A stretch of DNA of 64,000 nt from Mustelus asterias (lineage: Eukaryota): contig NC_135807.1 of assembly GCF_964213995.1 (NCBI RefSeq), positions 96,844,001 to 96,908,000 on the forward strand. The letters run 5' to 3'. The position numbers were made by a program, and so were the translations under genes. Under the pieces are notes generated by a model. The model made no database searches. It was not told where the DNA came from and was given only the letters and a program-made list of their open reading frames with translations. This document shows positions 1 through 41,122 of this stretch, in pieces; the stretch's first letter is position 1, and each line of letters opens with the position of its first letter.

Positions 1-680
1 TAGAAGTAGGAGCACCCAGAGAAGAATCCTCACAGCCATGTGTCCTTTCCCCACCTCCCTTTTCAAGACACTCATGCTAGAAATGAACTCCTCCATTCTC
101 TCAGACAGTGTACTGCCCTGGAAATGCTGACAATTTCCCCTGGCTACTCCACAAGTTCCCTATTAATGCTTGATCCGTGAGTTTAGTATCTATGCCCAAC
201 TGAGCAGAGCTTGGAGTGTATTGTGTCCTCCAAAAGGGACTCTCCATTGCTTGTCCCTGTCTCCAGCACCTATTCCTACTTACATGTGATTTGCTCTTTA
301 CCATGTGACATTCTACCTATCACTAATGCACACCTACTTGAGGTGTGTGTGTGTATCTGTGTTGATATCCCCACCTAGGTTGTGAGTGTGCATCTTCCAT
401 TCATTCTCCTGCTCTCAGAAAGCTTTACAATCAAGCTTTCAAGCAGCCAGTCAGACCCCTCCCAGGGCCTTTTAAACAGAGAGCCTTCATTCTGAGTGTA
501 GGTAGGTTATCATCACTCCTGCATTTTGGTCGGCCAGAAAACCTGGAGGCAACATATTAGTGCCGAGTCTGATTTAAACAGCAACAAAGCCTACTACTTC
601 AGTAACGGGTTGCTGACTTGCTACCCACCTCCCTGTGCATGTGGATCTGTTCTATTAACATGCTGTTGATTATCTCCATG

Positions 681-1834
681 CAAAGACTGCTACAGAAGAT
701 AAAGGTGGAAAGTATTACGGGTAACATATTAGCATGGATACAGGGTTGGTTAACGAACAGAAAGCAAAGAGCGGGGGTAAATGGATGTTTTGCTGATTGG
801 CAATCAGTGACTAGTGGTGTGCCTCAGGGATCAGTATTGGAACCGCAATTGTTTACGATTTACATAGATGATTTGGAGTTGGGGACCAAGTGTAGTGTGT
901 CAAAATTCACAGATGACATTAAGATGGGTGGAAGAGCAAAGTGTGCAGAGGACGCTGAAAGTCTGCAAAGGGATATAGATAGTCTAAGTGAGTGGGCGAG
1001 GGTCTGGCAGATGGAGTACAATGTTGGGAAATGTGAGGTCATCCATTTTGGTAGGAATAACAGCAAAATGGACTATTATTTAAATGGTAAAAAATTGCAG
1101 CATGCTGCTGTGCAGAGGGACCTGGGTGTCCTTGTGCAAGAATCACAAGGAGGTGGTTTGCAGGTGCAGCAGGTAATTAAGAAGGCAAATAGAATTTTGT
1201 CCTTCACTGCTAGAGGGATGGAGTTTAAAAACAGCGAGGTTATGTTGCAGCTGTATAAGGTGCTGGTGAGGCCACACCTGGAGTACTGTGTACAGTTTTG
1301 GTCTCCTTACTTGAGAAAGGATATACTGGCACTAGAGGAGGTGCAGAGGAGATTCACTAGGTTGATTCCGGAGTTGAGAGGGTTGGCTTATGAGGAGAGA
1401 CTGAGTAGACTGGGGCTACACTCACTGGAATTCAGAAGAATGAGGGGAGATCTTATAGAAACATATAAGATTATGAAGGGAATAGATAAGATAGAAGCAG
1501 GGAAGTTGTTTCCACTGGCAGGTGAAACTAAAACTAGGGGGCATAGCCTCAATATAAGGGGAAACAGATTTAGGACTGAGTTGTGGAGGAACTTCTTCAC
1601 ACAAAGGGTTGTGAATCTGTGGAATTCCCTGCCCAGTGAAGCAGTTGAGGCTACCTCATTGAATGTTTTTAAGGCAAGGATAGATAAATTTTTGAACAGT
1701 AAAGGAATTAAGGGTTATGGTGAGCGGGCGGGTAAGTGGAGCTGAGTCCACGAAAAGATCAGCCATGATCTAATTGAATGGTGGAGCAGGCTCGAGGGGC
1801 CAGATGGCCTACTCCTGCTCCTAGTTCTTATGTT
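681..1834 (+). mobile_element. CR1 LINE, 5'-truncated, young (open RT C-terminal frame)
   Basis: SGVPQGSVL, YIDD, FTDD, RPHLEYCVQFW, RGDLIETYKI, FFTQRVVNLWNSLP; typical 3' UTR ending TTCTTATGTT. Confidence 0.95.
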
Positions 1835-2051
1835 ACGTTACTCCTTGTCCGAGTTTGAACCATATTTTTTGTATCAATGTGGAGGAAATTCTGCATAAAA
1901 GGATTTTCATAATCCAACTACAGCTTGAACTTTTTTTCTAGGAGATTCCATTAAGTACTATAAACAGCGATCAAGAGAAACTGCTATTATTACTAGTAAG
2001 AAGTCTCACAACACCAGGTTAAAGTCCAACAGGTTTATTTGGTAGCAAATA

Positions 2052-2088
2052 CCATTAGCTTTCGGAGCACTGCTCCTTCATCAGATGG
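2052..2088 (-). ncRNA. Minimal type I hammerhead ribozyme motif (PLE family A), sense to SDHA pre-mRNA
   Basis: Minus strand CCAT CTGATGA A GGAGC agt GCTCC GAAA GC TA ATGG. Confidence 0.7.
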
Positions 2089-2493
2089 AGTGGAAATGTG
2101 CTCTCAAACAGTGCACAGAGACACAACATCAAGTTGCAGAATACTGATTAGCGGAACTTGGCTATCAGTTTCTGCTCAGCGACTCTGCGCTGTCGTGTGT
2201 CGTGAAGGCCGTGTCGTGATAGCCAAGTTCCGCACACATGAGGACGGCCTAAACCGGGATGTTGGATTTATGTCACATTATCAGTAACCCCCACAGCTTG
2301 CCTCCTGGGCTTGCAGAATCTCACTAGCTGTTCTGTCTGGAGACAATACACATTTCTTTAACCTGTGTTTAATGTTCCCTCCACCCACATTGTCTGTACC
2401 TTTAAGACCTGGCTGGCTGTAGGATTCGCATTCTAATCAGTATTCTGCAACTTGATTTTGTCTGTTTGCACTGTTTGAGAGCAGATTTCCACT

Positions 2494-2530
2494 CCATCTG
2501 ACGAAGGAGCAGTGCTCCGAAAGCTTATGG
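2494..2530 (+). ncRNA. Minimal type I hammerhead ribozyme motif (PLE family A)
   Basis: CCAT CTGACGA A GGAGC agt GCTCC GAAA GC TT ATGG: intact core, stems I and II. Confidence 0.7.
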
Positions 2531-3615
2531 TATTTGCTACCAAATAAACCTGTTGGACTTTAACCTGGTGTTGTGAGACTTCTTACCGTGTTCACCCCAG
2601 TCCAACGCCGGCATCTCCACATCATTATTACTAGTAACAGGTTTAAATTCCAAAGCAATCTAAATGAGGTAACTATCTGTAAAATCTAAATTATGCAGCC
2701 TAATATTTGTCCTGTTCTTACACACCCCAGTTGGCGCACACAAGAAAGCAAATGTTGGTAACTATGTGGAAGGGCAATACTGCTGATAGTTAATGACTGC
2801 GCTGGTTATCTTACTGCACAGTAAACTGCTTTCACTTTTTTCCCCGACTGTAGCTCCCAGTCAAGCCTAAGTCCCTTTCTACTTATGTGCCATCAATCAT
2901 ATCCTGAACAGATCCACAAGGAAAAGGCAGGAATGAAAGGTGCAAAGGAGATCAATAGTTAGAAATTAAAGTTTAAAAGTTTATTTATTAGTGCCACAAG
3001 TGGGCTTACATTAACACTGCAATGAAGTTACTTTGAAAATCCCCTCGTCGCCAGAGTCTGGCACCTGCAGGGGTACACGGAGGAAGAACCCAGCACGCCC
3101 AATGCATCTAATCCAACTTGCCAACCCACTCATCAGAACAGTCCCAGCAAAGCTGTTTTTCTTCACATTTCAACCTACACAAGCTTCCCACACAATGTTT
3201 CCTGATTTGTATTGCAGGTTATGATGCAAAAGAATTACTTGCACCACATTTTCTCCAAGACTCCTTTTTAACCCTCAGAGTCATAGCATTTTGTGATAAT
3301 AGTTTTGCACGCATTATTTAGTGTTGGCTATTGTACACAGGTTTAAATGTAGATTTTAAATTCTTTTTCTAAAAAGCATCAGTAAGATTGGCTGATAACA
3401 TGAACCACATGAGGCTCAATTACCTCCCTGTTGTTTGGTCAGGAAAAATGCTGGACCTCTGAGCATAGATTTCCACTCACAGAGTTGCTGGTTAAATGTT
3501 GGTCCTTAAAAATATACATTTCAAAAGATTTGTGAAACGAGTGAGGTGTCAGATGAACAGCCATGAGTTGCTCTGGCACTGCTTGTTTGGATTTGAAATA
3601 AAAGACAAGACTTAC

Positions 3616-3787
3616 CAGGCTTGCAAGTTTCTGCTATGGTTAGAGCACAGGCACGACCAAACACCACCAAGTCAAGGAGAGAATTTGCTCCAAGTCGATT
3701 AGCTCCATGAACTGAAGCACTGGCAGATTCACCACAGGCATAGAGGCCAGGTACCACAACATCCTTACCGTTTGTCTGGTTTATCAC
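3616..3787 (-). CDS. SDHA: SDHA exon 10 (later exons not seen; gene presumably continues left of the window)
   Basis: 172 nt, [20 protein letters not shown]...[21 protein letters not shown]; CAG / GTAAGT; phases of exons 1-10 join in frame (1423 nt). Confidence 0.98.
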
Positions 3788-3967
3788 CTGCAAGAGGCAA
3801 AATTCATGTTTAAACATTGTGTGCTACATTTTCATACTCTGACTCATAATACTGGTGACTAGCGAGCCCACCAGCAGCAAATGAGGGAGACAAACAGTCT
3901 CTGATTGAACAGGTAGTGAATACCGCTGGCTGTGAATGTGCTGATGGTTGTCTGATCCAGAGAAGCA

Positions 3968-4560
3968 AAGGTGCAGCAGGGCCGGTGACTGGGGGAGCGA
4001 AGGTGCAGCAGGACCAGTGACTGGGGGAGCGAAGGTGCAGCAGGACCAGTGACTGGGGGAGCGAAGGTGCAGCAGGACCAGTGACTGGGGGAGCGAAGGT
4101 GCAGCAGGGCCGGAGACTGGGGGAGCGAAGGTGCAGCAGGACCAGTGACTGGGGGAGCGAAGGTGCAGCAGGACCAGTGACTGGGGGAGCGAAGGTGCAG
4201 CAGGACCAGTGACTGGGGGAGCGAAGGTGCAGCAGGGCCGGTGACTGGGGGAGCGAAGGTGCAGCAGGGCCGGTGACTGGGGGAGCGAAGGTGCAGCAGG
4301 ACCAGTGACTGGGGGAGCGAAGGTGCAGCAGGACCAGTGACTGGGGGAGCGAAGGTGCAGCAGGGCCGGTGACTGGGGGAGCGAAGGTGCAGCAGGGCCG
4401 GTGACTGGGGGAGCGAAGGTGCAGCAGGGCCGGTGACTGGGGGAGCGAAGGTGCAGCAGGACCAGTGACTGGGGGAGCGAAGGTGCAGCAGGGCCGGAGA
4501 CTGGGGGAGCGAAGGTGCAGCAGGGCCGGTGACTGGGGGAGCGAAGGTGCAGCAGGGCCA
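3968..4560. repeat. 32-bp minisatellite, about 18 copies, SDHA intron 9
   Basis: Unit GAAGGTGCAGCAGG(A/G)CC(A/G)G(T/A)GACTGGGGGAGC. Confidence 0.97.
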
Positions 4561-4809
4561 GAGACTGTGCAGTGAAAGTCAGCAGGGCTGGCGGCTGGGG
4601 AAAAAAAAGATAAGGTGGGGCTTAGGTCCACGGAAGGGAAGATGTGGCAGAACTGGGGAAAGGGGGAGTGAGAGTGTGGCAGGACTGGAGCCCAAAGAGG
4701 CAAATGTGTGGCAGGGCCCGAGCCCGGGGATGTGTAGGTGTGGTGGGCCTGGGGAAGGGGCATGACTCGTGAGAGGCAGACCCCAAGGTGGGACCTGGAT
4801 GATGGAGGT

Positions 4810-4911
4810 GCAGAGGTGGGTGTGTGAGAGAGATGGAAAGTGTGAATGTGAGGGAATGTTTGTGAGTGTGAGAAAGAGAGTCAGGGTGTGTGTTGGGGGA
4901 GGGAGAGATGT

Positions 4912-4942
<31 letters not shown>

Positions 4943-5005
4943 GTGTGATGGAGTCTGCTGGGGAAGAGGGTGTGCATGTGCTGGAGAGAGAGTGTGTGCG
5001 TGTGT
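4810..5005. repeat. (GT)/(GA)-rich low-complexity tract with (GA)n microsatellite
   Basis: TGTGTGTGT followed by GAGAGAGA run near 4913-4943. Confidence 0.85.
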
Positions 5006-5311
5006 TCATGTCCATGTCAGTCAGCCTTACCCCCACACATCCTCACCCACACGTACAGTGAGCAAGTTAACAACAAGACTGGGAGTGACACACAGACATT
5101 CAACTTTTTTTGGAAATTCTTGTGCATTTCTGAAATTAGGTCATCGAGGAAAAAAATGGAAATGTGGCCCCCTTGCAAAGGGTTGCACAAGCCTGGTCTC
5201 GATTGAGTGCTCGGGTTTCGAGAGGGAGGCTTGAACCCACAATCTTCTGATTCAGAGGCAAAAGTGTCCCCACTAATCCAAGGCTGACGCCTATAGAATT
5301 TGCAGAAATTA

Positions 5312-5569
<258 letters not shown>

Positions 5570-5678
5570 CTAGAGAAAGTACAATCCCTATACATATGCC
5601 ATCCATGCTTCTAACAATCAAATGTCCATGTAGCAGAATTAACAACCATCATCTATCGTCTGACATTCAGACAGACAT

Positions 5679-6855
5679 TGCAGCGGGATCTTGATCAACT
5701 GTGCCAGTGGGCTGACGAATGGCAGATGGGAGTTTAATTTAGACAAATGCGAGGTGATGCATTTTGGTAGATCGAACGAGGGCAGGACTTACTCAGTTAA
5801 CGGTAAGGCGTTGGGGGGAGTTATAGAACAAAGAGATCTAGGGGTACGGGTTCATAGCTCCTTGGCGGCACGGTAGCACAGTGGTTAGCACTGCTGCTTC
5901 ACAGCTCCAGGGTGCCGGGTTCGATTCCCGGCTCGGGTCACTGTCTGTGTGGAGTTTGCACATTCTCCTCGTGTCTGCGTGGGTTTCCTCCGGGTGCTCC
6001 GGTTTCCTCCCACAGTCCAAAGATGTGCAGGTTAGGTTGATTGGCCATGCTAAAATTGCCCCTTAGTGTCCTGGGATGCGTAGGTTAGAGGGATTAGTGG
6101 GTAAATATGTGGGGGTAGGGCCTGGGTGGGATTGTGGTCGGTGCAGACTCAATGGGCCGAATGGCCTCCTTCTGCACTGTAGGGTTTCTATGTTTCTATG
6201 AAAGTGGAGTCACAGGTGGACAGAGTGGTGAAGGCGGCATTCAGCATGTTTGGTTTCATTGATCAGAACAGTGAATACAGGAATTGGGATGTCTTGTTGA
6301 AATTGTTCAAGACATTGGTAAGGCCACACTTGGAATATTGTGCACAGTTCTGGGTCATCCTATTATAGAAACGATATTATTAAACTAGAAAGAGTGCAGA
6401 AAAGATTTACTAGGATGCTACCGGGACTTCATGGTTGGAGTTACAAGGAGAGGCTGGAGTAGATTGGGACTTTTTTCTCTGGAGCGTAGAAGGCTGAGGG
6501 GTGATCTTATAGAGGTCTATAAAATAATGAGGGGCACAGATCAGCTAGATAGTCAATATCTTTTCCCAAAGGTAGGGGAGTCTAAAACTAGAGGGCAGAA
6601 GTTGAAGGTGAGAGAGGAGAGATACAAAAGGGTCCAGAGGGGCAATTTTTTCACAGAGGGTCTGGAACAAGCTGCCAGACGTAGTAGTAGAGGCAGGTAC
6701 AATTTTGTCTTTTAAAAAACGTTAGTTACACGGGTAAGATGGCTATAGAGGGATATGGGCCAAATGTGGGTAATTGGGACTAGCTTAATGGTTAAAAAGA
6801 GGGGCGGCATGGACATGTTGGGTCGAAGGGCCTGTTTCCATGCTGTAAAGCTCTG
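5679..6855 (+). mobile_element. CR1 LINE 3' part interrupted by a SINE
   Basis: EFNLDKCEVMHFGR ... LRGDLIEVYKIM; same subfamily as 29769-32426. Confidence 0.9.
5864..6200 (+). mobile_element. Full-length tRNA-derived V-SINE (HE1-like)
   Basis: A box GGTAGCACAGTGG, B box GGTTCGATTCC, V domain TGTGTGGAGTTTGCAC...GGTTTCCTCCCACA, CR1-like tail TTTCTATG; splits CR1 at CTTG|AAAG. Confidence 0.9.
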
Positions 6856-7130: not shown

Positions 7131-7251
7131 GATGATGAAGGAGCAGCGTTCCAAAAGCTCGTGATTCCAAATAAACCTGTTGGACTTTAACCTGGTGTTG
7201 TGAGACTTCTTACTGTGCCCACCCCAGTCCAACACCGGCATCTCCATATCA
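7131..7251 (+). mobile_element. PLE family A pseudo-LTR, single arm, degenerate hammerhead
   Basis: ATGATGAAGGAGCAGCGTTCCAAAAGCTC...AAATAAACCTGTTGGACTTTAACC...CCCCAGTCCAACACCGGCATCTCC. Confidence 0.8.
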
Positions 7252-8235
7252 TCTCTTTTTTAGGGCAAAGTAGAAGAGCTGGAAACCAGACTGATTACAG
7301 ACATTGTCTTTAGTTAGTCCTCAGCTATGCGAAATAAATACGGCAGAGGGTGAAAGATATGAGTTTCAAGTTGTTACAGATATGTTTCAGCTCTAGCCGC
7401 AGTTGTTTGAGAAAGCAGTTTTGGAAAATACCCAAGGACAGGTTCTCTTCATTGCGCCTGGGGAATGATCAATCCCCAGGTTGATGAGCTCTCGTCCCCA
7501 CTACCCTCCCCTGGTAATTATTTAAGTCTTCCTTATTAAATATGTCTGGACCTAAACTACTATACATTGGCATTAGGCAGAAGGGGGGTCTGTGTCCTCA
7601 GATTCCTGCCATTATTTTCTTCACTGCCTTATTTTGCTTTATAATGCCCGTGAAGTCCTTGGGATGTTTCATTACAATAAATGCGCTATATAAATGCAAG
7701 CTGATGTTGTTGCCTGTTAAATACCCAAGCAGAAGGCTGCCTAGAGAAATCTGGCACTGGGGCTTGTGCAGGGAGGGTACCCGGTGTAAATAAATGATCC
7801 AAGACAGAATAACCTTAGACGCTCTATGTACATCAAGTAAATTGTGCCTGATATATCCTACAATTGATAATTGGCAGAAGTCGTAGATCTTTTGTGATTT
7901 ACTCAATTTCGTGATGCCTCTATTATCTGAATTAAGGTGACGTTTGTGCTCCAATACATTACAGGACATTCAGGCTGCAAATAATTGGAAACAGATTTCT
8001 CAAAAATAACTTCACACACAAACTTGATACAATGATAATGGAGCTGTTGATTAAAGAATCTCAACTAATTAGATTACAACAGACCCAGACAGGAGGCGAG
8101 GAAAACTGCAGGGGCAGGGCGCTTTGGGAATCATAGGTCCAAACCCATTCATTCCTTTCAAACATGCTATACTCCATGTATGGTATATCTCAAAATAATC
8201 ATGTACATATCCTCAATATTATTTTTCTGAAAGAA

Positions 8236-9586
8236 CATTAATTGGGATAGTCATAGTATAAAAGGGTTCAGAGGGAGCGTGGATTTCTTGAAATGTATTC
8301 AGGGGAACTTTTTATGTCAATATATTAAAGGCCAACAAAGGTTGGATATAATTATGGGGAACAAAGCCAGACAGATGTTTGAGGTGGCAGTGAGGGAGCA
8401 TTTTAGTGACAGCAATCACAACACAGTACAATTTAACATGGAAACAGAAATTACTGGAAAATCTCAGCAGGTCTGACAGCATCTGTGGAAAGAGAGTAGA
8501 GCCAACGTTTCAAGTCTGGGTGACCCTTCGTCAGAGCTGTACACTTTAAGTTTGTTATGAAAAAGCCAAAAGATGGTCTGCAAAAAACGATTTTGGATTG
8601 GGGAAGGGAGATTCTATTAAAATAAGGCAGCATCTGGCCAAAGTAAACCGGGAGCAGTGGGAGTGTTTGAAAAGGAAATGGGGAGAGTACAGGCTCAGCA
8701 TGTTCCCTTTGGGGTGAAACGTAGGAATAACAAGTCCAGAGAACCGGGATGTCTAGGAATATTCAGGACTGAATAAGAAAAGAGAGGCTTTTAGCAGGTA
8801 CAAAGGGAGCAAATAGTAGAGACTTTAGTGGAGAATAGAAAGTGCAGGAGGGAACCTGCGGAAGCAATTAGGAGAGCAAAGGGGGACATGAAAAATCACT
8901 GCTCGGTAGAATTAAAGAGAATCTCAAGATATTCTATAAATATGTTAAGGGGAAGAGGATAACCAGGGAAAGAGTAGGGCCCATTAGGGACCAAAGGAAA
9001 AATTTGTACAGGAGCCGGAGGATATTGGTAGGGTTAAAATAGTATCCTGTCTTCGCTCGAGGGGAAGAGAGGTCAGGGACAGAATTCAGGGAGAGGGACT
9101 GTGAGGTCCTTGAACAGTTTGACAAAGATTGAGGAGGTATTGGAGGTTTTGGCAGGCTAAAAGTAGATAAATCCCCAGGTCCAGATGAGTTGCATCACAG
9201 GCTGCTGTGGAAGGCAAGGGAGGAATTTACAGGAGCTCTAACCCAAATTTTTAATTCCTCTCTGGTCACAGGGGAGGTGCCAAAGGACTGGAGGACAGCT
9301 AATCCGGTTCCACTTTTCAAGCAGGGTGGTAGAGATAAACCAAGGAATTGCAGACCAGTGAGTCCCACATCTGTGCTACGGAAACTATTGGAAAACATTC
9401 TGAAGGAGAAAATTAATCACCACTTTGAGAGGCAAGGTTTGATCAGGGATAGTGAGCATGGCTTTGTCAGATGGAAGCCATGCTTAACGAATTTGATTGA
9501 ATTTTTCAAGGTGGTGATCAGGTGTCTAGATGAGGGTAGTGCAGCTGATGTTTTGATTTTAGCAAAGCACAAGGTCCCACATGGGT
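8236..9586 (+). mobile_element. Degraded CR1 ORF2 (endonuclease end to RT start)
   Basis: EHFSDSNHN, GEVPKDWRTANPVPLFK, NCRPVSPTS, HGFVRWKPCLTNLIEFF. Confidence 0.9.
8442..8538 (-). mobile_element. PLE family B pseudo-LTR with hammerhead core, inserted in CR1
   Basis: Minus strand AGCT CTGACGA A GGGTC accca GACTT GAAA CG TT GGCT; flanks GTACAATTTAA / GTACACTTTAA. Confidence 0.75.
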
Positions 9587-25282: not shown

Positions 25283-25660
25283 GCCCCTGTCTACATCGAT
25301 GGTAGTCATGATATGGAGATGCTGGCGTTGGACTGGGGTAAACACAGTAAGAAGTTTAGCAACACCAGGTTAAAGTCCAACAGGTTTATTTGGTAGCAAA
25401 AGCCACACAAGCTTTCGGAGCTCCGAAAGCTTGTGTGGCTTTTGCTACCAAATAAACCTGTTGGACTTTAACCTGGTGTTGTTAAACTTCTTACCCTGTC
25501 TACATCAACAGGGATGAAGTGGAAATGGTCGAGAGCTTCAAGTGTCCAGATTACCAACAACCTGTCCTGGTCCCTCCACGCCGACGCTATAGTTAAGAAA
25601 GCCCACAATGCCTCTACTTTCTCAGGAGGCTAGGGAAATTTGGCATGTCAGCTACGACTG
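25283..25660 (+). mobile_element. Rex1/Babar LINE fragment interrupted by a PLE palindrome
   Basis: PVYINRDEVEMVESFK..VQITNNLSWSLHADAIVKKAH..LYFLRRLGKFGMS. Confidence 0.7.
25307..25494 (-). mobile_element. PLE family A palindromic insertion
   Basis: 148-bp spacerless palindrome 25347-25494 plus single-copy tail; direct repeat CCCTGTCTACATC at 25285 and 25494. Confidence 0.85.
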
Positions 25661-26982: not shown

Positions 26983-28484
26983 ATTCTCATCAACTCTCAG
27001 ATGCACCATGGAAATTATTCTTTCTGGTTGAATCACAGCTTGGTATCATGGTCACCATTATTGACGCTAGCTTTATATTCCAGATTTGTTAATTATTCCA
27101 GATTAATTGAATTTGAACCTATGTCCCCAGAGCATGAAGCTGGGCCTTTGGATTACTAGTGCAGTGACACAATGACTACACCACCATCTCTGCTTGACAG
27201 CATGACTTCTGCTAAATTTACCGACTGTAATACTGACATACTACAGTTTGCCTTAACATGTGATCCTCCTCCTTCTAAATCTCACCCTGGCAAATTCATT
27301 CACAAAGTTCAGAGCTCACACAGCCCCTATAACTTTCCATTTCTACTATCACAAACAGTGACTCATCTGCTCCATAGTACTACTTTTTGAACTAGTTATT
27401 CACTGTTTATTTTGTATAAATATTGGAGAGGTCCCATTAGCTGAATAACTCACAACACAATGTTTAACTTGGCTTAATCAGATTGGGCCTGTACACAATA
27501 ACCATGATCTACAATCACTACTTAAATGCTAGTTGGTACCTTCTTGAATAATTATAGCCCCATAGGCATTACAATAACTAAGCCTTTTATAAGTTACACT
27601 AACTAGTTCAATGTGCTAAATTGACCAGTAGGGTTACACTGACCTGTATAACCACACACCCTCAAAATAAAGAATTTGCATTTTGATAATGCCTTGTAGG
27701 CCCTCAGAAGTCCGAGAGTGTTATACAGCCAATGAAGGAAAGTCTGAGGTAACGTAGAGAAAATGTGGCAGCAAATTTACACATAGCAAGACCCCAAATA
27801 GTCATGAGATAAAGATCATCCAGGATACCATTTTTGAACATTGGCATCAAATATTTAATATCCAGGAAGTGGGTGGAAGCAGTGAAGAACAAAAGGTACC
27901 CGAATTTAGCATCGCATGTGAAAGATATCAACTCCAACAGTGCAGTACTCCCTCAATACTGCTTTAAAGTATCCATTTACATTGAGCACTTCCATCCCAT
28001 CATTTTTTGAACCAGGTTGAGAGCGCCAGCCAGAACTGCAATTCCAGAGTAATCGGCACTAACTGATGGACTCTTAGGTCAGTGGAAGACTGGTGATAAT
28101 TCACTGCATCATGAGCCTTCTTACCATGCACAACACCAGGGCCATTGTGTGATTTCAAGAAGAAATTAGATAAAGCTCTTGGCGGTGAAGGGATCAAGGG
28201 ATGGGGGCGGAGGGTGAAGGGATCAAGGGATTGGGGGATGGTGGTGGGGGTGATGGAGAAGGAAGACGAGGTCTGGATATTGAATATGATCAGCCATGAT
28301 CAAAATGAATGGCAGAGCAAACTTGAAGGGCTGAATGGCCTACTCCTGCTTCTATTTTCTGTTTCTATGGAGTTTGCATGTTCTCACCGTGTCTGTGTTG
28401 GGGGGTGGGGGGCTGGGTGAGATGCTGTTGCGATGCTGTTTCGAGAATTGGCGCAGACTCGATGGGTCGAATGGCCTCCTCCTG

Positions 28485-28654
28485 AACAGTAAGAAGTTTA
28501 ACAACACCAGGTTAAAGTCCAACAGGCTTATTTGATAGCAAAAGCCACACTTTTGCTAGTGGCTTTTGCTACCAAATAAACCTGTTGGACTTTAACCTGG
28601 TGTTGTTGAACATCTTACTGTGTTTATCCCAGTCCAACGCCGGCATCTCCACAT
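28485..28654 (+). mobile_element. PLE family A hairpin insertion inside an HE1-like SINE
   Basis: About 62-bp inverted arms with about 10-nt spacer plus tail; TSD CTCCTCCTG at 28476 and 28655. Confidence 0.85.
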
Positions 28655-28878
28655 CTCCTCCTGCACTGCAGGGTTTCTAACAATTTGACCAATATAATCA
28701 CCATTTATATAACTCTTGTTTACTTCCTGTAGTTACATAACCAGAATAACCTTGAAGCCCTACAGTGACCTCCAAGCATCACAGTAAGTGATTAGAAGCT
28801 GGAATAAAGGCTGGACTCCAGTGCTGACCATCCCCAGGTAGCCCTGGCTGATTACACTGAGCGCCCTGACCCACTGAC

Positions 28879-39132: not shown

Positions 39133-39228
39133 CCTGACGAAGGGTCACCCAGCCTCGAAACGTTGGCTCTATTCTCTCTTCACAGATGCTGTCAGACCTG
39201 CTGAGATTTTCCAGCATTTTGTTTTTGC
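39133..39228 (+). mobile_element. PLE family B pseudo-LTR beginning at the hammerhead core
   Basis: CTGACGA A GGGTCACCCAGCCTC GAAA CGTT GGCTCT...CACAGATGCTGTCAGACC. Confidence 0.75.
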
Positions 39229-40435: not shown

Positions 40436-40528
40436 AAAAACAGAAAATGCTGGAAAATCTCAGCAGGTCTGACAGCAACTGTGGGGAGAGTAGAGCCGAT
40501 GTTTCGAGTCCAGATTACCCTTCATCAG
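40436..40528 (-). mobile_element. PLE family B pseudo-LTR with hammerhead core
   Basis: Minus strand CTGATGA A GGGTAATCTGGACTC GAAA CATC GGCT; TSD AATGCACTC / AACGCACTC. Confidence 0.75.
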
Positions 40529-41122
40529 AACGCACTCCTCGGCTTCCATACCCATTCTTAGATATTTAAGGTTTTGCCAATATAAATTACTTCGTCAAAA
40601 GATCAGAATGTTCTTGAAATGAGGCCAGGATGTAGATGCAGTGTTTAGTTTGAACAGTTTGGTGAGAGGCATCCAGCAGTCAGTTATGCTACAAGAGCTT
40701 GTAAATCCAAGGTCATTTCCACACATCATTAACTTTCAATGATGAGGGTAATTGCTGGCTTTTGAAACATTTAACACAGTTCAGATATCTTGGGTCATGT
40801 TTTCCTGTAATATCGGTGTGACCTAATAGCACATTCTGAATTGTTTTAGCTTAGCCACTATTACTTAATATAGAGAAACTATTTGCAATGCACGTAACGA
40901 CTTAATCTTCTCCAGTTAGCATAGCACTGTATGATGCAGTGACGTGGAATATAGCAAATGCAATTACACTACAGCAGCTGTGTTGTTCAGTTGTGTTCAG
41001 TGTCAGTCTTGGCTCAGTTGGAGCACTTTCACCTCTGAGTCAGGAGTTCCAGTTCCAAGTTCTATTCCAAAATTGGAACAAAAAAAAATTAGTTGACACT
41101 CCAGGACATTACTGTTGGAGTG

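Follow-up and report, generated by a model that had tools for sequence, protein, structure and literature searches.

A young Penelope-like insertion with mirror-image minimal hammerhead motifs in SDHA intron 10 of Mustelus asterias, likely silent in the host transcript

Location of the insertion in the SDHA gene

The window analysed here is a stretch of 64,000 nucleotides from Mustelus asterias. Around it, the profile TIGR01816 gave eleven matches on the minus strand of the contig (C7), with two further weak matches on other contigs. In the span covered, exons 3-13, the exons bounded by AG/GT, which were chosen among up to six candidates each, measure 162, 144, 165, 149, 125, 169, 196, 172, 119, 112 and 131 nt. 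We take these to be the lengths of human SDHA exons 3-13, and the match places the insertion in intron 10 by human numbering, as a preliminary description of this DNA had proposed. The intron is 7,372 nt long, and the insertion lies about 1 kb into it, counted from the 5' splice site. The same description was also correct in stating that the minus-strand hammerhead copy has the sense of SDHA. The features of the insertion and its surroundings are the following.

1986..1999, plus strand: left copy of the target-site duplication, 14 bp; its final 4 nt are shared with the end of the inverted arm, and the organism B contig with the empty site has it only once
1996..2151, minus strand: inverted, tail-less pLTR arm, family positions 217-370; its subfamily haplotype differs from that of the plus arm
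2052-2088, minus strand: minimal hammerhead, SDHA-sense, triplet CUA; predicted to be buried in the arm-arm duplex
2151..2211, minus strand: inverted 61-nt piece of the endonuclease coding end (GLHDTRQRRVAEQKLIAKFR)
2212..2216, no strand: 5-nt junction filler repeating 2198-2202; loose contig ends at 2211 and 2217
2217..2287, plus strand: final 22 codons of the RT/GIY-YIG ORF together with its stop, where the plus arm has its 5' truncation point
2288..2586, plus strand: plus-arm pLTR; in the SDHA pre-mRNA the insertion begins with the antisense of this segment
2494-2530, plus strand: minimal hammerhead with triplet CUU, which is the form seen most often in the sampled copies; antisense to SDHA
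2587..2623, plus strand: one-sided "tail", about 37-39 nt, missing from the minus arm
2624..2637, plus strand: right copy of the target-site duplication
3616..3787, minus strand: SDHA exon 10, 172 nt, by the human numbering assumed above; exon upstream of the insertion

Several other repeats surround the insertion. A LINE-like 3' end at 606-1834, presumably of the CR1 type, lies 150 bp to its left and has a 379-aa open frame (606-1745) and a short repeated tail. Very high-copy short repeats are found at 2976-3053, where the summed depth is millions-fold, and at 5867-5939; the latter has a tRNA-like head (a weak Rfam mascRNA match) and is probably a SINE. SDHA intron 9 contains a tandem array of a 31-nt G-rich unit at 3961-4570. 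Older and shorter fold-backs of the same Penelope family (86-92%) are located at 7133-7252, 25302-25499 and 28483-28655, with hammerheads that are truncated or damaged. Hammerhead-like motifs of other families, with ACGU or ACAU after GAA and a longer stem II, occur at 8498-8540 (-), 39134-39164 (+) and 40492-40534 (-). The first of these has the sense of SDHA, is situated in intron 8 and is non-complementary to AGCU.

Architecture of the Penelope-like insertion

Both hammerheads belong to one 5'-truncated Penelope-like element (PLE) insertion of the Neptune/Nematis type, which extends over about 1996-2623. The enclosing inverted repeat of ~155 bp reported earlier was confirmed: its arms, 1996-2151 and 2433-2586 (156 and 154 nt), are 94.9% identical. 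Read outward from the centre, both arms start in the final codons of the GIY-YIG domain. The piece at 2151-2211 adjoins the minus arm with 200 nt skipped between them and a microhomology of 1 nt; this segment is common to both subfamilies of the element described below and is not assignable to either.

Two longer copies of the family (L073 and L064) contain ORF pieces of 593 and 538 aa, which comprise a reverse transcriptase plus, at the C terminus, a GIY-YIG domain; the intron-10 copy keeps only the end of this ORF. In the longer-copy ORF P0001, a CX4CxxC linker is present, together with two cysteines between GIY and YIG. A CX2-5CxxC linker and two cysteines internal to the GIY-YIG domain are described as defining the Neptune/Nematis-type EN+ PLEs (PMC8557442). 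A full-length intact ORF of the family was found in none of 13 regions.

The architecture of the intron-10 insertion is the rule in its family. Among 110 loci, collected with our own queries, some of which included the tail, and with 17 duplicate or overlapping loci removed first, 72 are inverted pairs, and of these 67 carry the tail on one arm, four on neither and one on both. A flank duplication of 11-15 nt accompanies 51 of the 72 pairs, compared with 2 of 426 control pairings at 11 nt or more. One-sided tails of this kind have been described (PMC8557442, PMC3846280, PMC11167929). Identical insertion junctions recur on contig C1 (L103 and L104; G000:C1 39359634, 39392806 and 39425982), and their regular or long distances suggest segmental duplication.

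Three other explanations for the inverted structure were rejected. The ORF remnants, the one-sided tail and the variable arm lengths rule out a MITE. Non-LTR retrozymes are built from tandem, non-coding units of 150-400 nt with a hammerhead; the present insertion is inverted, not tandem, and holds ORF remnants, which rules out this class as well. An assembly artefact is ruled out by contigs that cross both insertion junctions.

The hammerhead motifs

Inspection of the sequence bore out, letter for letter and in both arms, every motif element listed in the preliminary description. Both motifs contain the core CUGAnGA and GAAA with an NUH cleavage triplet, a 5-bp stem II (GGAGC/GCUCC) with a 3-nt loop, one extra A between positions 9 and 10.1, a G10.1-C11.1 pair, and a stem I formed by CCAU/AUGG, while a palindromic AGCU occupies 15.2-16.2 and stem III is missing. 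The predicted cut falls between 2056 and 2055 in the minus motif and after 2526 in the plus motif. The motif sits in the pLTR, about 210 nt past the ORF stop. All conserved core letters, the extra A, the G10.1-C11.1 pair and the palindrome are those of the published minimal hammerhead ribozyme (min-HHR; definition in PMC4209133), and with this core and the pLTR location the assignment to the minimal type I hammerheads of Penelope pseudo-LTRs was correct.

A check by Rfam, suggested at the same time, did not recover the motifs: the four matches at E up to 10 in 1-6000 include no hammerhead, likely because stem III is missing. As a monomer, the motif is predicted to fold no better than shuffled sequences (z -1.0). 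Given the weak monomer fold and the lack of an Rfam hammerhead match, the case for a hammerhead rests on the conserved core and on the comparison across copies. In the segment 2472-2552 (+), flanking pairs can lengthen stem I across an internal loop (z -2.55), and a single change in the minus arm disrupts one of these extending pairs.

Copy number and conservation across the family

The motif pattern is no chance occurrence, as its exact form has 28,853 matches genome-wide and the reversed control has none. Three stem I variant patterns have 14,416, 1,833 and 1,775 matches (control 0 for each), and the four exact patterns together give 46,877 matches in the genome, about one per 78 kb. The innermost pair of stem I is U-A in 28,853 and C-G in 14,416 of these, with 3,608 mixed forms. 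One of the two paired forms is thus present in 43,269 of 46,877 matches (odds ratio 128), and the mixed C.A form is depleted, with 1,833 observed against 10,637 expected under independence; the covariation may go back to a single past event, or to a small number of them, that amplification has multiplied, so that these counts are non-independent. Many of the C.A cases among the listed matches resemble CpG decay of the C-G subfamily.

The preliminary description had named covariation of the stems across genomic copies as a check on the fold. This was found for the innermost pair of stem I, which alternates between U-A and C-G between subfamilies, and not for stem II. In a by-eye count of 100 listed copies, stem II was intact in 83, contained a G.U pair in 7 and was broken in 10, with no compensatory change among the 100. 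At its second pair only 10 double changes occur genome-wide, explicable as two transitions, and a further comparison, uninformative with only six near-identical rows, likewise showed no stem II covariation. Among 99 copies, a small sample biased to query-like copies, a variant shared by at least three copies is seen at 0 of 11 sites in the core and at 24 of 117 in the flanks; the positions free to vary are N7, loop II and position 17. Since the covariation of stem I lies between subfamilies, it speaks for a fold kept by the lineage of the element and not by SDHA. A fair reading of these comparisons is that the hammerhead fold is kept by the source lineages of the element, which is silent on the dead copy in intron 10.

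Starts of family copies were counted relative to the cut site with three patterns. There are 670 at the cut, and 259 and 1,923 at the control positions -5 and +5, which admit other subfamilies and fold-back hot spots; with these crude controls, the counts show no distinct peak. The 28 cut-site matches inspected include three point variants of untruncated copies and five fold-backs.

Age of the insertion

The insertion had been called a relic, which implies age. This term does not fit: another copy matches the plus arm at 99.5% identity, and a close relative has the site empty. Of the plus-arm copies scored, counting the one in the window itself, at least the top 40 reach 99-100% identity. In organism B (run X3), one contig of 544 nt with a depth of 5.4 passes from 1985 to 2624 with nothing in between, and it retains a single copy of the duplicated target. 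The flanks in organism B are about 2% diverged from the window (28 letters in about 1,340, two contigs). Contigs of organism A (run X1, possibly the source sample) span both junctions with 0 differences, while runs X7 and X8 leave the left flank uncovered and are hence uninformative on the site. The insertion is young and absent from a close relative, the empty site being given by one contig from one run of one other organism.

Subfamilies of the arms and origin of the insertion

The two intron-10 arms differ by a 2-nt indel and several substitutions, which correspond to subfamily haplotypes, and the haplotype of the minus arm recurs in eight copies at seven other loci. For each arm there is an unlinked copy with fewer differences from it (2 and 0) than the partner arm shows (6). 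In the family, arms of the same insertion are closer to each other than arms of different insertions in 37 of 37 pairs, with 1.3 versus 5.4 diagnostic differences per 100 nt. The two intron-10 arms have a value of 3.3 and are thus near the cross-insertion value of 4.5, in a comparison that is biased as both arms served as queries. These differences hint at an origin of the two arms from two RNA templates, the most economical explanation; the same pair might instead have come from a tandem source of mixed type or from gene conversion at a later time.

We lean towards a mechanism in which priming by a PLE takes place on both strands of the cut and may draw on two RNA molecules. The GIY-YIG nuclease of the element would make a staggered cut in an AT-rich site, followed by reverse transcription from both cut ends, at one end from the tailed start site and at the other from the tail-less one. 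Both cDNAs would halt early and would be joined head to head via microhomology repair. For the intron-10 arms, two different source RNAs would likely have been used. In the tandem transcripts of the element itself, two motifs could pair via AGCU to form stem III, which would allow slow cutting, probably aided by protein.

Predicted folding in the SDHA pre-mRNA

For the SDHA-sense hammerhead, the preliminary description considered self-cleavage of the SDHA pre-mRNA upon dimerisation and, alternatively, sequestration by the inverted repeat. Self-cleavage by the intron-10 copy is unsupported. The antisense arm is transcribed about 400 nt before the SDHA-sense hammerhead, and stems I and II have a predicted probability of 0.000, in the whole insertion as well as in all five nascent prefixes tested. 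The fold predicted for the whole insertion (-374.9 kcal/mol, z -21) has the arms paired end to end. Imposing both stems while the core stays open is predicted to cost 62.6 kcal/mol, and 55.4 kcal/mol if the chain ends right after stem I, compared with only 5.6 kcal/mol when the antisense arm is left out. The AGCU helix that a partner could offer is predicted to be worth -2.5 to -4.5 kcal/mol. Moreover, the two intron-10 motifs are on opposite strands, so that neither can be the dimer partner of the other in one transcript.

Sequestration is the likely alternative, with the hammerhead buried in the predicted arm-arm duplex. This is argued by the cost of opening the duplex together with the low published activity of such motifs and the slow cleavage in introns. 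Single min-HHRs are reported to show no cleavage and dimers little (PMC4209133), and the PLE hammerhead of the anole is described as requiring the element protein, with no RNA-seq ends at its site (PMC11167929). Where a hammerhead within an intron cleaves slowly, splicing is reported to go unblocked (PMC2995048, citing Dye 2006 and Fong 2009). Pol II would make the antisense arm first, the emerging hammerhead would pair with it, and the arm-arm hairpin would leave with the spliced-out intron 10.

On these models, the locus very probably contains one 5'-truncated PLE insertion with mirror-image min-HHR ends, whose SDHA-sense copy is predicted to be locked in the 155-bp hairpin and is likely a passive passenger. 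The locking is an equilibrium prediction, and the duplex could be weakened through ADAR editing or by the action of helicases or hnRNPs. Nothing singles out the SDHA locus, with one such motif per ~78 kb of genome and the insertion absent in the relative. A host-exapted intronic ribozyme was considered separately and rejected, on the grounds of the empty orthologous site in organism B (one contig, one species) and of the predicted stem probabilities of 0.000 in the host transcript.

A second SDHA-sense copy and alternative readings

A second hammerhead of the same family with the sense of SDHA is located in intron 11, 9 kb downstream (L062:3009-3049, triplet CUU), in the following insertion.

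L062:2934-3120 (G000:C7 about 96836934-96837120): intron-11 insertion, inside an apparent LINE fragment and flanked by a short duplication

As the inverted arm extends no further than family positions 338-408, the core is predicted to be free. The hammerhead is predicted to lie in a loop closed by a 43-bp stem, with probabilities of 0.65 for stem I and 0.77 for stem II. By these predictions the intron-11 copy is the better candidate for activity than the intron-10 copy; in the scanned exon 3-13 span, no free partner for it was found. The Poisson probability of at least two sense copies in the span is about 0.02, which is ordinary across thousands of genes and applies to a locus for which one copy was the reason for choosing it.

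With this second copy in view, the hammerhead might be silent and the hairpin nevertheless active, in that it is ADAR-edited, diced, or pairs with the intron-11 copy over exon 11 and thereby shifts splicing or back-splicing. Duplexes such as those of inverted Alus undergo editing. The predicted 155-bp, 95% duplex is very stable, the next intron contains sequence of the same family in both orientations, and inverted Alus offer an analogy (PMC12093144). However, each insertion can pair locally first, the distance of the hairpin to the 5' splice site is 1 kb, and its origin is recent and limited to a lineage. The hairpin is likely to be edited to some extent, a consequence for SDHA is not likely, and we regard an active hairpin as improbable.

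A live intron-10 hammerhead that dimerises with the intron-11 copy or another transcript, cuts the SDHA pre-mRNA and so tunes its output or removes exon 11 is highly improbable. A complete core and an identical AGCU are present in both SDHA-sense copies, the one in intron 11 is predicted to be free (0.65/0.77), and cutting in dimeric form is reported for PLE hammerheads (PMC4209133; review PMC6765202), but the opening cost of 62.6 kcal/mol stands against about -2.5 to -4.5 kcal/mol from the AGCU helix. The antisense arm is also made first, the insertion is missing in the relative, and reported rates are low, with eight of nine Xenopus retrozyme dimers uncut in vitro (10.64898/2026.07.22.740005).

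It is barely credible that the resemblance to a hammerhead is fortuitous, or a degraded remnant irrelevant to the element too: the monomer z of -1.0, the lack of an Rfam hammerhead match and of stem II covariation, an in vitro insertion unimpaired in HHR mutants (PMC11167929) and the success of some PLE clades without HHRs (PMC8557442) would fit, but the published min-HHR has the same core, extra A, G10.1-C11.1 pair and palindrome, the innermost pair of stem I swaps from U-A to C-G with mixed forms depleted, and variation falls at N7, loop II and position 17.

Comparison with known systems and significance

We thus favour a young insertion of a known type whose SDHA-sense hammerhead is predicted to be locked in the hairpin. 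The motifs resemble the PLE min-HHRs described in PMC4209133, which are of type I, have no stem III and share the extra nucleotide before stem II, the G10.1-C11.1 pair, the palindromic 15.2-16.2, a 4-bp stem I and thousands of dispersed truncated copies. Pairs on opposite strands at 100-700 bp are found in Schistosoma (PMC4209133) and here, although stem II has 5 bp here and 7-8 bp in Schistosoma. The 46,877 matches to four exact patterns exceed the 4,000 of coelacanth and 9,000 of Xenopus given in the same paper, with counting methods that differ. In the sections of PMC4209133 covered, no shark is named among the hosts of PLE min-HHRs, and no report of a shark Penelope ribozyme was found in the literature searched, in which one preprint, taken with its supplements excluded, includes one chondrichthyan genome.

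With the EN+ Neptune/Nematis PLEs, as described in PMC8557442 and PMC3846280, the family shares the order of RT, CX2-5CxxC linker and GIY-YIG domain with two internal cysteines, as well as head-to-head arms, a tail of 30-40 bp at one end and a target duplication. The latter measures 14 bp here (11-15 in the family) and 8-10 bp in Adineta (PMC8557442, PMC3846280). Unlike the elements described in these two papers, the intron-10 insertion has arms with different subfamily haplotypes. Two-strand cutting and extension in vitro, at AT-rich targets, has been described for PAc (Poseidon of Anolis; Frangieh et al. 2024, PMC11167929), and its two RT start sites, which bound the tail, fit the one-tailed, two-armed insertions observed here. 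PAc belongs to another clade, however, and both strands shared start sites in vitro, whereas 67 of 72 pairs are asymmetric here; its HHR also overlaps the ORF start, unlike in the present family.

A ribozyme motif on the sense strand of a protein-gene intron is likewise found in the amniote ultraconserved hammerheads and CPEB3. These are single-copy, active as monomers and conserved across species, whereas the intron-10 copy is one of tens of thousands, is without stem III and is absent in a close relative. Layout and motif are of an already published kind, to which the intron-10 pair adds a member that is ordinary at its locus and likely silent in SDHA, and for SDHA the insertion would be of little consequence.

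It is conceivable, but quite improbable, that the pre-mRNAs of this genome carry many thousands of compatible AGCU half-ribozymes, of which free copies like that in intron 11 would dimerise with the help of the element protein and cut nascent host RNA, with the inverted arms acting as a safety catch. If true, free sense copies should be depleted from introns by selection. Whether min-HHRs cut in vivo is posed as an open question in PMC4209133, PMC8557442 and PMC11167929, and the tens of thousands of young copies provide a data set for testing this. The intron-10 insertion, with its verified target duplication and arms of two subfamilies, would be a clean case for two-strand priming with two RNAs.
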